Shown here piece after piece: positions 7,234 through 37,606 of a stretch of DNA of 64,000 nt. Source of the stretch: Candidatus Latescibacterota bacterium. GTDB lineage: Bacteria > Latescibacterota > UBA2968 > GCA-2709665. The position numbers were made by a program, and so were the translations under genes. The DNA lies in contig OZ242180.1 in assembly GCA_965205485.1 (NCBI GenBank), positions 1,696,001-1,760,000 on the forward strand. The letters are read 5' to 3'. Position 1 is the first letter of the stretch. Each line of letters starts with the position of its first letter. Below the pieces are notes generated by a model that saw only the letters and a list, made by a program, of their open reading frames with translations, was not told the origin of the DNA and ran no database searches.

Positions 7234-8577
7234 TCAGAAACGGAGGGTGAATACGGTTTCTTCATCGGGCGTGGATTGAACGCTGATGGCGCCGCGATGC
7301 TGGCGCATGATCTGCCGGCATAGCGACAATCCGATGCCCGATCCCTCCTGTCTGGTCGTGAAGAAGGGGATGAAGATGCGGTCCTGCACCTCGTCGAGGA
7401 TGCCAGGGCCGTTGTCCTGTACGCGGATGAGAACGCGCCCCCTTCGGTCCAGGGCCGCAGTGAGGTCGATACGGGGCTGATCTCGCCCGGCCAGGGCTTC
7501 CGCCGCGTTCCGCACGAGATTGATGAGCGCCTGCTCCACGAGGCTCGGGTCGGCCGTGACTTCCAGGGTCTCGGGTTCGACCCGCGTGCGCAGGGCGATG
7601 CCTGCCGTTTCGCATTCCGGATTCATGAGGGACGCAACGCGGTCGAAGAGTCCGGCGACGGGACAGATCCGGAAGTCGGGCCGGGGTATCCGCGTGAGCT
7701 GGCGGTACGTGTCCACAAACTGCTGCAGGCCTTCGCTACGCGACTGTATGGTCTCGAGCGCGGCGCTCACGTCTGCCTCGGTCTGCTGATCGAGCGGGGA
7801 CTGGCGACCGGATTCGGGAAAGTGGCCGCGTACCGTGGAGGCAAGGGACGAAATGGGCGTGATCGAATTCATGATTTCGTGGATGAGTACCCGTATGAGT
7901 TTCTGCCACGCCTCCATTTCCTGTTCTTCCAGTTCGCTCTGGATGTCCTGCACCGACGCCAGAATGAACGATTCGCCGCGCATCCGGATCTCGGTGGCGT
8001 GGATGATGATCTGAAGGAGTTCGTCTTCGTCCTGGACCTTGACCAGGGTCCTGTCGCCCGGGCCCAGCGCGAGAAGCGTGTCGGCAAGGGTCTCGCTCAC
8101 CGTCTGAAGTTCTCGCACGTTGTGGATGTGGGGCCGGCGAAGCAGGCGCTGGGCGGCGGTATTCATCAGCTCGATGCGGCCGTCAGATCCATAACAGACC
8201 AGGCCAACCCCCACGTGCTGGACCACGGTCTGCAGGTATTGGAAGTTCTCCTCTTTTTCCGCGCGCGTCCTCCGGAAGGCGTTCAGCACCTCGTTGAACG
8301 CCTCTTTCAGGTCGTCGAAGGCGGACCCGAGTCCGCGGCCGCTGAAGGACTGGGAGAAGTCTTCGTACCGGATGGCCTGCAGGAAGCGCGTGAGGTCCCG
8401 GCTGGTGCGCTCCACGTAGTGGATGAGGGCATAGGCCTGGTAAAGCGTCATGCCGGCCAGGATGAGGACGGTGGTGTAGTAGGACGTCTCGAAGAGGACG
8501 TACGCAAGGGCGCAGATGGTGGCGCAGAGGAAAGCCACCCGCACGATGCAGAGCGTCCGGAAGTGTCTATAGACCAT
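7234..8577 (-). CDS. Sensor histidine kinase (2 TM, PAS-like, HisKA/HATPase)
   Basis: H-box LIHEIMNSITPI, N-box NLVRNA, DNGPGI, FIPFFTT, GSGIGL. Overlaps the stop of the response regulator. Confidence 0.92.
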   Translation of the reverse strand: MVYRHFRTLCIVRVAFLCATICALAYVLFETSYYTTVLILAGMTLYQAYALIHYVERTSRDLTRFLQAIRYEDFSQSFSGRGLGSAFDDLKEAFNEVLNAFRRTRAEKEENFQYLQTVVQHVGVGLVCYGSDGRIELMNTAAQRLLRRPHIHNVRELQTVSETLADTLLALGPGDRTLVKVQDEDELLQIIIHATEIRMRGESFILASVQDIQSELEEQEMEAWQKLIRVLIHEIMNSITPISSLASTVRGHFPESGRQSPLDQQTEADVSAALETIQSRSEGLQQFVDTYRQLTRIPRPDFRICPVAGLFDRVASLMNPECETAGIALRTRVEPETLEVTADPSLVEQALINLVRNAAEALAGRDQPRIDLTAALDRRGRVLIRVQDNGPGILDEVQDRIFIPFFTTRQEGSGIGLSLCRQIMRQHRGAISVQSTPDEETVFTLRF

Positions 8578-35209: not shown

Positions 35210-37606
35210 ATGTTCCGCAACTACCTGATCGTGGCCGTGCGACACCTGCTCCGGCAGAAGCTGTACGCGTTCATCAACGTGTTCGGGCTGGCAGTGGGCC
35301 TTGCGTGCTGTATTCTGATCTTTCTCTACGTCAGACACGAGTGGCAGTACGATGCCTTCCACGAGAACGCCGACCGCATTTTTCGCGTGATTGTGCGGGA
35401 AACCAGGCCTGACGGCGGTGTCGGGTATTCCACGCTACATCCCACGACGCTTGCTGCATCGCTGAAGGAAGAATTCCCGGGAGTCGAGCGGGCAAGCGGG
35501 TTCATTCGTTCACAGACGCAAGTATCACATCAGAAGATCCTCTTTCGAGAATCCTTCGGCCTGGTGGAACCGGACTTTCTGCGGATGTTCTCATTTCCGC
35601 TCCTTGCTGGAGACCCGGAGCAGGCCCTGCGGCGGCCGGATGGCGTGGTGTTGAGCGAGACCGTCGCTCGTACGCTCTACGGGAATTCTGAAGACGATCA
35701 TAGGTCCGCTTTGGGGAATCCACTGCTGCTCGGAGACCACGAATTTACCGTCGCGGGGGTCATGCGGGACGTCCCCGAGAACTCCAGTCTGAATTTCAGT
35801 CTCCTGATACCGATCGAGCACCACAGGAATTATCCCTCCGCCTTGGATGATACTGGTGGAAAGACCGCTGTGTACGTGGAACTTGCAAATACACCTGAAG
35901 TGGACGCGCTGGAATCGGCGCTTCCCCCCTTTGCTGAAAAACACCTGAAGGACCGGATCGGACGTTTCAAAACTCGAGGTCGGGTAAGGAATACTGACGA
36001 CGGGTTCTTGCTGCGCCTCCAGCCGCTGCGCGACGTCTATCTGGATTCTGACGGTGTCAAGAACAGTTACGAAGCCAGCGGCAAAACGGTCTATTCGTAC
36101 CTGCTTTCCGGGCTCGCGATTCTGGTGCTCACGGTTGCATGCATCAACTACGTGACCCTGGCGGCAGGTCGGTCAGTTGGGCGTGCGTCAGAGGTGGGAA
36201 TGCGAAGGGTGTTGGGGGCACACAGGACGCAACTGATGTGGCAGTTCTGGGGTGAGGCGTTGTCCTTGAGCCTTGTTGCATTGGCGATGGGAATCGCGCT
36301 GGCCGAGATGTTTCTGCCCGCATTCAATGATCTGGCGCGCAAGAATCTGGACATGCCCTACCTGGACAGCTGGGGGACACCGCTGGCGCTTCTGGGGATG
36401 GTGTGCATCGTTGGACTTGCGGCGGGCAGTTATTCGGCCCTGGTTCTGCCCGGGCTTCAGACAGTAGACGTGCTCAAGGGCCATGTCCGTATTGGAAGAC
36501 GCAACGCAGGTTCGAGGGCGCTGGTGGCCGTGCAGAATGCCCTTTCGATCGCACTGATGATCGGCGCGGCTATGATGTTTCAACAACTCAACTACGTGAG
36601 AGAAAAGGATTTGGGATACCGTAACGAGCAGGTAGTGGTTATTCCTGTCTCGGACGACTACAGTGACCTATATAAGATAGAGGTCTCCAGATCTCATCGA
36701 GTTATCAGCGCAACCGTCAGCGACCGTGCGTTTACGACTGGAGATGCCACTTTAGGGGTGGAAACGAAAGACGGGGAACGCTTTGGGGTTCGAGTTATCC
36801 GGATTGATCCCGATTTTCTCAAGACCATGGACATCCAGCTTGTGGCAGGACGGGATATACCATCGCCGTCCACGCCCGGTCAGAGAGTATCCGCACTCGT
36901 GAACGAGAAATTGGCCGGAATGCTCGGATGGGAGGATCCCATCGGGAAGACGCTGAAACTGCGCGCACTTCGCGAACCGACCGTCGTCGGCATTGTAAGG
37001 GATTTCCATTTCGATTCCATGCATCTGGAAATCAAACCGTTGGTGCTCCACACTGGAATGGGAACCTTCGGACCCTTTTTGTTGATCAGGATCAAACCCG
37101 CGGACATTGCCGGCACGATCGCATTTCTTGAGAAGACGTGGGAAAAAGTGGCGCCGGACGAGCCGTTTAGCTATTCCTTTCTGGAAGATAATCTCGCCCG
37201 CCAGTACCGGAATGAAGACCGATGGTTCAGAATCACGGGATATACGTTTCTCTTCGCCATCCTGATTTCCTGTCTGGGGCTTCTTGGGCTGGCGTCTCTT
37301 TCCGTTTCACGGCGAACCAAAGAGGTCGGCATCCGAAAGATCCTGGGAGGCTCGGTTTCGAACCTTTCTCTCCTGCTCTCCAGTGAATTCGCGAAGCTTG
37401 TTCTGGTCGCCAATCTGCTGGCGTGGCCGGTCGCCTACTACGTGACGAACAGGTGGCTACAGAATTTCGCCTATCGTATCGAACCTGAACCGGAGATCTT
37501 CATTCTATGTGGCGTTCTGGCGCTCGGGATCGCCATGCTCACCGTGGGCGCCCAGTCGGTCAAGGCCGCACTTGCGAATCCCGTGGATGCATTGCGGTAC
37601 GAGTAG
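35210..37606 (+). CDS. ABC transporter permease, MacB/FtsX-type (paralog 6)
   Basis: MFRNYLIVAVRHL..., EVGMRRVLGA, KEVGIRKILGG, ANPVDALRYE. Confidence 0.92.
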   Translation: MFRNYLIVAVRHLLRQKLYAFINVFGLAVGLACCILIFLYVRHEWQYDAFHENADRIFRVIVRETRPDGGVGYSTLHPTTLAASLKEEFPGVERASGFIRSQTQVSHQKILFRESFGLVEPDFLRMFSFPLLAGDPEQALRRPDGVVLSETVARTLYGNSEDDHRSALGNPLLLGDHEFTVAGVMRDVPENSSLNFSLLIPIEHHRNYPSALDDTGGKTAVYVELANTPEVDALESALPPFAEKHLKDRIGRFKTRGRVRNTDDGFLLRLQPLRDVYLDSDGVKNSYEASGKTVYSYLLSGLAILVLTVACINYVTLAAGRSVGRASEVGMRRVLGAHRTQLMWQFWGEALSLSLVALAMGIALAEMFLPAFNDLARKNLDMPYLDSWGTPLALLGMVCIVGLAAGSYSALVLPGLQTVDVLKGHVRIGRRNAGSRALVAVQNALSIALMIGAAMMFQQLNYVREKDLGYRNEQVVVIPVSDDYSDLYKIEVSRSHRVISATVSDRAFTTGDATLGVETKDGERFGVRVIRIDPDFLKTMDIQLVAGRDIPSPSTPGQRVSALVNEKLAGMLGWEDPIGKTLKLRALREPTVVGIVRDFHFDSMHLEIKPLVLHTGMGTFGPFLLIRIKPADIAGTIAFLEKTWEKVAPDEPFSYSFLEDNLARQYRNEDRWFRITGYTFLFAILISCLGLLGLASLSVSRRTKEVGIRKILGGSVSNLSLLLSSEFAKLVLVANLLAWPVAYYVTNRWLQNFAYRIEPEPEIFILCGVLALGIAMLTVGAQSVKAALANPVDALRYE

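Follow-up and report, generated by a model that had tools for sequence, protein, structure and literature searches.

A predicted sigma-54-dependent regulon of interchangeable ABC permeases in Candidatus Latescibacterota, with counterparts across bacterial phyla

Results

Organization of the locus

The window analysed here is a stretch of 64,000 nucleotides from a Candidatus Latescibacterota bacterium (GenBank assembly GCA_965205485.1, contig OZ242180.1, positions 1,696,001 to 1,760,000), and between its positions 7234 and 37606 lies a cluster of transporter and regulatory genes punctuated by three enhancer-promoter modules (Table 1). An original prediction from the sequence had portrayed this cluster as a self-contained sigma-54 regulon, and Pfam bears out its gene calls: six permeases with duplicated MacB_PCD/FtsX domains, an HlyD adaptor, an ABC ATPase, a regulator, a kinase, an extracytoplasmic function (ECF) sigma factor and a DUF4097 protein. 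Elements of the span that the prediction does not mention are a BNR_4 gene, a major facilitator gene, a PIN/Phd toxin-antitoxin pair, a four-helix-bundle insert and a broken redoxin gene. Each permease comprises two MacB_PCD/FtsX halves, with eight hydrophobic segments in permease 5, which together with the separate ATPase gene is the layout of a type VII ABC transporter.

The tandem-box pattern proposed for the three modules matches the 5.13-Mb genome at exactly three places, none of them outside the window, and TGGCAC follows at +100, +101 and +101 from the first base of the box pair, with GG-N10-GC in all three cores. Each enhancer is built from a 16-bp TGT-N10-ACA dyad with inner CR-N4-YG, a 4-bp spacer and a 17-bp variant of the dyad, the right halves being spaced by 21 bp. 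In a genome scan with a weight matrix trained on the window sites alone, these scored 55.4, 55.4 and 52.3 bits, a held-out fourth site 44.5 bits and the next best place 22.6 bits, while the same matrix peaked at 14.4-16.9 in three shuffled genomes. Since the scores of the sites far exceed both the next best place and the shuffled-genome peaks, chance is excluded as their origin.

The fourth site (C1:3521792) lies 1.8 Mb away, carries two mismatches, has TGGCAC at +103 and a GG-N10-GA core, and is the sole extra match in the genome when the exact pattern is relaxed to up to seven mismatches. It is an out-of-sample confirmation of the matrix, and because it precedes a seventh permease, an 812-aa duplicated protein (C1:3521792-3524414), the regulon is not confined to the window. 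The epithet "self-contained" must therefore be dropped, as relatives too have 1-13 scattered sites each, and six further long permeases of the genome have no site: of its 13 long MacB/FtsX reading frames, seven follow a site, and among the six others there is one that has its own ATPase. In congeners the fourth-site locus has up to three enhancers, one of them before an S9 peptidase gene.

Enhancer 1 probably acts in both directions. A minus-strand sigma-54 core, running from 10063 to 10048 and aimed at the regulator-kinase operon, had escaped the original prediction; it is the predicted inducible promoter of regulator and kinase, and the sigma-70-like promoter beside it their predicted basal one. 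Between each enhancer and its plus-strand core lies a weak stretch resembling a site for integration host factor (IHF), with 2-3 mismatches at best in the window's own modules; such sequence is found 31-32 bp 5' of the core in 34 of 61 distinct modules, versus 6.4 in shuffles. Boxes and cores are retained at the same spacing, in contrast to the sequence separating them, which has diverged. At the gathering threshold Rfam has no match in window 7000-38000, and the long leaders therefore contain no known riboswitch.

Table 1. Features of the cluster, in window coordinates.
Feature	Position	Strand	Basis or remark
Histidine kinase, 447 aa, HATPase_c, H-box HEIMNS	7234..8577	-	Pfam, hydropathy, family alignment
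Sigma-54 activator, 458 aa: receiver, AAA+ with GAFTDA, Fis-type helix-turn-helix	8567..9943	-	Pfam, tree, co-occurrence with boxes
Sigma-54 core TTGGCACGAAAAATGC aimed at regulator-kinase operon	10048..10063	-	Identical in 14/14 genus loci, own genome included
Sigma-70-like promoter TTGACA-17-CATTAT	10095..10123	-	Both hexamers retained in 14/14 genus loci
Enhancer 1	10151..10187	none	16-bp dyad, 4 bp, 17-bp dyad; pattern and matrix
Weak IHF-like stretch, enhancer 1 to P1	10218..10235	+	Positional conservation; similar at 26878-26895 and 30948-30965
Sigma-54 core P1	10251..10265	+	Pattern match
Permease 1, duplicated MacB/FtsX	10841..13216	+	Pfam, NCBIfam
Permease 2	13803..16379	+	Pfam, NCBIfam
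Permease 3	16556..18946	+	Pfam, NCBIfam
Permease 4	19696..22068	+	Pfam, NCBIfam
BNR_4-repeat protein, conserved neighbour, candidate regulon member	22362..23759	+	Pfam, congener gene order
Major facilitator superfamily (MFS) transporter, conserved neighbour	23997..25175	+	Pfam, congener gene order
Enhancer 2	26810..26846	none	Pattern and matrix
Sigma-54 core P2	26911..26925	+	Pattern match
DUF4097 protein, probable lipoprotein	27098..27922	+	Cys20; atypical lipobox with Pro at -3
Broken redoxin (AhpC-TSA) remnant	27923..28513	+	Three-frame reading with stops; intact there in congeners (relative L227)
Permease 5	28514..30853	+	Pfam, NCBIfam
Enhancer 3	30880..30916	none	26 bp past permease 5 stop
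Sigma-54 core P3	30981..30995	+	Pattern match
ECF sigma factor, no adjacent anti-sigma gene	31046..31678	+	Pfam, NCBIfam, congener gene order
HlyD-family periplasmic adaptor	31740..33182	+	Pfam, NCBIfam
Stand-alone ABC ATPase, LolD/MacB type	34421..35110	+	Pfam, NCBIfam, congeners
Permease 6	35210..37606	+	Pfam; missing from cluster in 2/8 congeners

The activator encoded at 8567..9943 is the predicted binder of the tandem boxes. Among the 25 best-scoring NCBIfam models listed, it reaches the curated cut-off of no named family, and in a quick tree the regulators form one clade separate from the genome's 13 other activators. The aspartate in the loop that is otherwise GAFTGA is found in 75 of 80 family members, and a similar recognition helix pattern, T/S-R-x-x-L-Y-R, in the 74 of 80 regulators where the helix could be located. 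The genome encodes one rpoN, 14 strong sigma-54 activator domains and four HU/IHF-family genes. Hydropathy places two hydrophobic segments, joined by a very short loop, in the first 60 residues of the kinase, which has no periplasmic sensor domain. Sequence searches of the PDB returned remote relatives only (3is6, a MacB; generic kinases), and a complex prediction of permease 5 with two kinase copies (residues 1-105) gave a score of 0.03 and a mark of 0.32, which counts neither way.

Conservation among relatives

Close orthologues of the regulator (at least 64% identity) occur in 41 of 60 relatives and the tandem dyad (TGTNCR-N4-YGNACA twice) in 42, with 1-13 sites each and none in the reversed control; 39 genomes have both. 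The two genomes with the regulator only (G054 and G057; loci L047 and L048) contain variant tandem sites, and two of the three with the motif only, the drafts G019 and G031, carry an orthologue of the kinase. P1 is retained in 13/13 congeners for which the DNA was available. In a sister genus the sites are scattered, and in one of its genomes (G040) nine of ten are followed by both a sigma-54 core and a permease or ATPase gene. Among 46 metagenome loci (49 matches, two loci overlapping), 37/49 matches are followed by a cluster-gene homologue, and a strict core lies at +90 to +115 in 31/48.

The claim that the permeases are interchangeable parts is supported by how they vary, in number and sequence, around one conserved ATPase and adaptor. 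In eight congeners identity is 95-99% for the ATPase, 91-97% for the regulator, 86-97% for the kinase and 80-94% for the adaptor, while the permeases differ in number and range from 37 to 94%. Between the six window permeases, identity is 52-61% in the ATPase-coupling segments versus 34% in the periplasmic domains. One congener (G001) has a row of three enhancer-permease cassettes. The ECF gene lies behind an enhancer in 8/8 congeners, and also linked to enhancers in relatives are redoxin genes, an S9 peptidase gene and a second, TolC-containing efflux operon. In one relative (G014, L241:5478-13128) an enhancer heads a separate operon that encodes three HlyD adaptors along with a single-domain MacB permease, TolC and an ATPase. 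L034, L052, L060 and L193, from relatives and Bacteroidota, have a second ATPase paralogue, about 52% identical, under an enhancer of its own; it was not found in the source genome with this query.

Conservation across phyla

The kinase family is large: of 8000 clusters scored, at least 7972 reach E 1e-30, and there are 2521 representatives at 50% identity. From 588 confirmed stretches on GTDB contigs, many of them short, we took the best 80, in which the regulator is present in 73, the adaptor and the ATPase in 44 each, a permease in 37, TolC in seven and the ECF factor in two. Adding seven plasmid loci and three class relatives gave 90 loci, of which 77 had a regulator start and at least 250 bp upstream. 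A hit was defined as two dyads with at most three mismatches in total. The original prediction had staked itself on the motif recurring upstream of orthologues, and it does so in 55/77 regulator loci versus 0.53 in dinucleotide shuffles, and in 42/47 of the loci with a diverging transporter or ECF gene. By record title the positives belong to Latescibacterota, Bacteroidota, Ignavibacteriota, Rhodothermota, Balneolota, Zixibacteria, Acidobacteriota, Alpha- and Gammaproteobacteria, thus spanning at least eight phylum-level groups. Together with the co-occurrence of box and regulator in relatives, this supports the assignment of the sigma-54 modules to the adjacent regulator.

Promoter cores accompany these sites, as TGGCAY occurs within 30-120 bp in 47/55 positives versus 2.15 expected. 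The distances from enhancer to core fall into three clusters (41-42, 49-55 and 61-66 bp) and leave 56-60 empty, a distribution compatible with helical phasing without exactly matching it. In whole-genome scans of five distant genomes, 12 of 13 sites adjoin permease, ATPase or adaptor genes, against two control hits. Two other procedures were discarded: the Latescibacterota-trained matrix, with which only 9/80 loci scored 15 or more because the second box and the spacer vary, and which the dyad-pair test replaced; and a very loose single-dyad scan, which yielded mostly noise. One record titled Eubacteriales (L109) holds a full adaptor-ATPase-regulator-kinase module with two-way sigma-54 cores; its regulator groups with diderm sequences, and the contig is possibly misassigned.

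Relation to the Vfm sensing module

A plasmid search retrieved 25 records, 11 of them from Rahnella, where a cluster encodes an AraC regulator, adaptor, ATPase, 809-aa duplicated permease, activator, kinase, phosphopantetheinyl transferase, MATE pump and three adenylation enzymes. These match the Dickeya vfm gene types as given in PMC9306890, and by gene content the Rahnella cluster appears vfm-like; a literature listing returned no paper naming it so. The Rahnella regulator, kinase, adaptor and ATPase each have the window gene as best match in the source genome, while the permease, only about 23% identical, has permease 4 as its best match. The Rahnella regulator is sister to the family with a support of 97 in the Shimodaira-Hasegawa-like approximate likelihood ratio test (SH-aLRT), on a long branch (1.58), and has GAFTDA at 231-236, the same position as reported for VfmH (PMC10714721). 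The link to Dickeya rests on Rahnella gene content and the GAFTDA position. In a sample of 401 genomes around a Colwellia genome, the Rahnella kinase found 26 matches, none above 41% identity, and turned up no close vfm cluster.

In both Rahnella species, each strand of the gap between the AraC and adaptor genes carries a sigma-54 core (L097:13652-14083, L182:5651-6083), which is weak evidence of conservation because the two are 92% identical there. The tandem motif of the window was not found upstream in either L097 or L182. The same gap and the region before a vfmA-like gene (L097:8700-9043) contain TCCCA-N4-TGGGA dyads, a type that differs from the window motif and provides candidate operators of a VfmH-like activator. 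PMC12206141, citing primary work, states that VfmH binds the vfmA, vfmE and vfmF promoters, and PMC9452768 that IHF binds the vfmE promoter. In the R. victoriana copy most biosynthesis genes are missing from the annotated stretch.

The likeness between the window and Dickeya Vfm extends to a sensor-less two-helix kinase, a GAFTDA activator, an adjacent ABC permease and ATPase, autoactivation (predicted for the window) and a downstream regulator gene. They differ in that Vfm has the AraC regulator VfmE and one permease, whereas the source genome has an ECF sigma factor and seven permeases. Neither signal-biosynthesis genes (adenylation enzymes, acyl carrier protein synthases) nor an AraC-type VfmE occur among the 39 open reading frames scanned in the window, to which this search was limited.

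Discussion

The cluster is very probably a classical sigma-54 two-component regulon with positive feedback, which would drive a set of interchangeable type VII ABC permeases served by a single ATPase and a single adaptor. Judging from what is known of such families, the kinase, with two membrane helices and no outside sensor domain, would phosphorylate the adjacent GAFTDA activator, and each of the tandem dyads would take an activator dimer, two in all. DNA looping, probably aided by IHF, would then bring the activator onto sigma-54 holoenzyme at the -24/-12 core about 63-66 bp further on and switch on the permease arrays, the operon of ECF factor, adaptor and ATPase, and the orphan permease elsewhere in the genome, while in the opposite direction enhancer 1 would activate the regulator-kinase operon itself. 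A further cascade through the ECF factor, as put forward in the original prediction, is conjectural; the ECF gene lies behind an enhancer in 8/8 congeners but occurs in only 2/80 of the wider loci.

Each permease would constitute a fused pseudo-dimeric type VII ABC membrane unit, and all may use the one ATPase and the one adaptor, borrowing TolC from elsewhere: the cluster itself contains no TolC gene, and the remainder of the genome has 16 OEP domain matches in eight reading frames. Since the periplasmic domains diverge fast, each permease probably handles a different envelope-acting compound. These compounds are most likely peptide-like, a guess to which the nearest families and the co-regulated peptidase point. 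New members of the regulon would arise by duplication of an enhancer-promoter-permease cassette.

Several observations weigh against this reading. Beyond the six long permeases without a site, the genome has 13 other sigma-54 activators that are possible alternative binders of the boxes, and the activator itself has GAFTDA in place of GAFTGA; for Dickeya VfmH, which shares that loop, a pull-down did not recover sigma-54, and PMC10714721 calls the question of its GAFTDA loop unresolved. One relative (G021) has the motif as a single 3-mismatch site, with neither core nor system. In the sister genus g6 no tandem site was found within 1.5 kb of the regulator in 15/15 loci examined, and none was found upstream in 22/77 of the wider regulator loci. 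The relatives are akin to one another and are not independent samples, the half-site pattern was loosened after the first cross-phylum matrix run, so that only the shuffle control was blind, and the clusters of distances fit a period of 11.5-12 bp better than one of 10.5.

It is possible that the permeases are mainly co-sensors which report distinct signals or antimicrobial peptides through the sensor-less kinase, in the manner known from BceAB-BceS and proposed for Dickeya VfmG. The regulon would thereby amplify its own receptors, with the ECF factor relaying the response as VfmE does. Such a receptor array would extend the export regulon rather than contradict it, and we regard it as a serious possibility that nevertheless falls short of being our expectation. 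The missing periplasmic domain of the kinase fits it, as does the Rahnella vfm-like cluster, which holds the same five genes and whose regulator joins the family at an SH-aLRT of 97. In Dickeya, signal specificity follows polymorphism of vfmG and not of vfmI, and the authors propose the permease VfmG as co-sensor of a kinase without a ligand-binding domain (PMC9306890); here too, a conserved kinase is paired with variable permeases. That role of VfmG is itself a proposal, however, and the Rahnella parallel is loosened by the long branch, the low identity of the permease and the different dyads. Many distant regulator-kinase pairs without an adjacent permease still keep the site, but the conserved adaptor (44/80 of the best loci) and the sometimes adjacent TolC (7/80) point to real export, and the window has no genes for signal synthesis.

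A bolder form of this idea, to which we give a somewhat lower probability, is that the system represents a widespread parent form of Vfm, a variable permease panel with one ATPase, adaptor and sensor-less kinase that amounts to multi-receptor signalling in Gram-negative bacteria. The panel numbers seven permeases in the source genome, and some relatives have twelve or more enhancer-linked loci. Its members would differ in periplasmic specificity, so that any one of several foreign peptide-like signals or antibiotics could trigger the system, which would thus behave as an OR-gate and gain receptors by copying of the cassette. If this were true, VfmH would be a genuine sigma-54 activator.

Could the adjacent regulator bind the boxes and yet act independently of sigma-54, as a repressor or through sigma-70, with the TGGCAC elements being relics or serving another activator? 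The variant loop and the negative VfmH pull-down lend themselves to this explanation, as do the sigma-70-like promoter between enhancer 1 and the regulator and several deviant -12 elements (TCGC, ATGC, TTGA). However, cores stand at restricted distances in 47/55 loci across phyla, the aspartate is found at the loop position in 75/80 members alongside the promoters, and, in PMC4641369, GAFTDA is among the variants expected to keep activity and is found in one Desulfovibrio activator with assigned targets (GAFTGA variants are also dealt with in PMC3162934). We thus consider sigma-54-independent action improbable. Still less credible is that the modules are no maintained regulon but arose passively, through tandem gene duplication or as a mobile repeat. 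Enhancers do often begin right after a permease stop, three cassettes stand in a row in G001, and the cluster gaps are full of repeats resembling repetitive extragenic palindromic (REP) elements. Against this explanation speak the diverged DNA between retained boxes and cores, the single scattered sites of other genomes, nearly all of which precede genes of the same types, and the motif's four genomic copies versus 6-94 for REP-like families, and cross-phylum conservation largely refutes it.

The regulon resembles NtrB/NtrC, AtoS/AtoC and ZraS/ZraR in the receiver-AAA+-Fis build of its activator, the tandem dyad enhancer, the IHF-like site and the -24/-12 core, but its activator forms a clade of its own, with an inner CR-N4-YG consensus and transporter targets. 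The upstream site of NifA is TGT-N10-ACA, and the outer bases of the window dyad have this geometry. In the HrpR/S - sigma-54 - HrpL cascade, a sigma-54 activator transcribes an ECF sigma gene lacking an anti-sigma factor, as predicted for the window, though activator and targets are unrelated to those of the window. BceRS-BceAB has an intramembrane-sensing kinase adjoining an FtsX-fold ABC transporter that it induces, and the window has a predicted equivalent. The Bce regulator is of the OmpR type, whereas that of the window is a sigma-54 activator, and the window represents a diderm system with an adaptor, many permeases per kinase, and eight-helix permeases with two periplasmic domains versus ten helices in Bce. 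PMC9306890 and PMC8277102 describe the Bacillota BceRS-BceAB kinase and FtsX-fold transporter in peptide sensing and resistance, and the latter treats type VII ABC transporters.

Among the best NCBIfam matches are ADOP (TIGR03434), DarBCD and MacAB-TolC, which share the duplicated MacB_PCD and FtsX domains, the HlyD adaptor and the LolD-like ATPase; in the window, by contrast, the ATPase is a separate gene common to many permeases and TolC is absent from the cluster. Membership in ADOP was rejected, as the six permeases score 264-311 bits, under the cut-off of 622.3, and so was membership in DarBCD (DarB up to 121 versus 700, DarC 178 versus 450, DarD 270 versus 375).

Arrays and orphans of MacB/FtsX permeases of about 800 aa are common in Bacteroidota, Acidobacteriota and marine Proteobacteria, with no known function. 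A recent study reports sigma-54 promoters enriched at FtsX-like permeases (COG0577) in Gammaproteobacteria, Opitutia and Bacteroidia and claims the first such evidence; the text seen names no activator or enhancer, and its supplements may bear on this (PMC12316311, 2025). No description of the activator-site pair was found in the literature searched, which did not extend to supplements and subscription papers, including two primary Vfm papers. The regulon is real, widespread and classical in its regulatory mechanism, but apparently undescribed as a defined regulon in the searchable literature. A defined activator and site allow a genome's orphan permeases to be grouped and, with a predicted start point, offer a direct reporter for screens of inducing compounds. 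The homology with Vfm bears on two printed questions, whether a GAFTDA activator works via sigma-54 (PMC10714721) and whether the permease is the receptor (PMC9306890).

Additional observations

Permeases 1-4 may be co-transcribed from P1 over 12 kb, and a terminator scan revealed no strong terminator in the gaps between them. The leader and the gaps (10279-10840, 13217-13802, 18947-19695 and 22069-22361) are packed with palindromic repeats of the REP-like type; the families have 6-94 copies each genome-wide, and one has 5 of its 13 copies in the window. Directly 5' of the MFS start, the stretch 23760-23996 contains a sigma-70-like promoter (23802-23831) and a terminator-like hairpin (23969-23990) without an Rfam match, which may act in attenuation or may just terminate the upstream operon; in one metagenome locus (L076) the MFS orthologue lies directly behind an enhancer.

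Just upstream of enhancer 2, a PIN toxin and a Phd/YefM-type antitoxin are encoded on the minus strand (25943-26562), a pair present in 2/8 congeners. Between adaptor and ATPase (33183-34420) lies a four-helix-bundle gene of the 23S rRNA IVP family, found in some congeners only and with differing sequence (41-77%), and it is flanked by inverted repeats of the TCAGCTATCAGC type, which have 94 copies in the genome. An extra TGGCACG-N5-GGC at 61864, inside a queA-like gene and without an enhancer, is probably due to chance. The stretch 50228-55506 encodes two leucine-rich-repeat proteins, of 356 and 1383 aa, and after them a Kelch-repeat protein; eukaryote-like repeat proteins of these kinds are frequent in host-associated bacteria.

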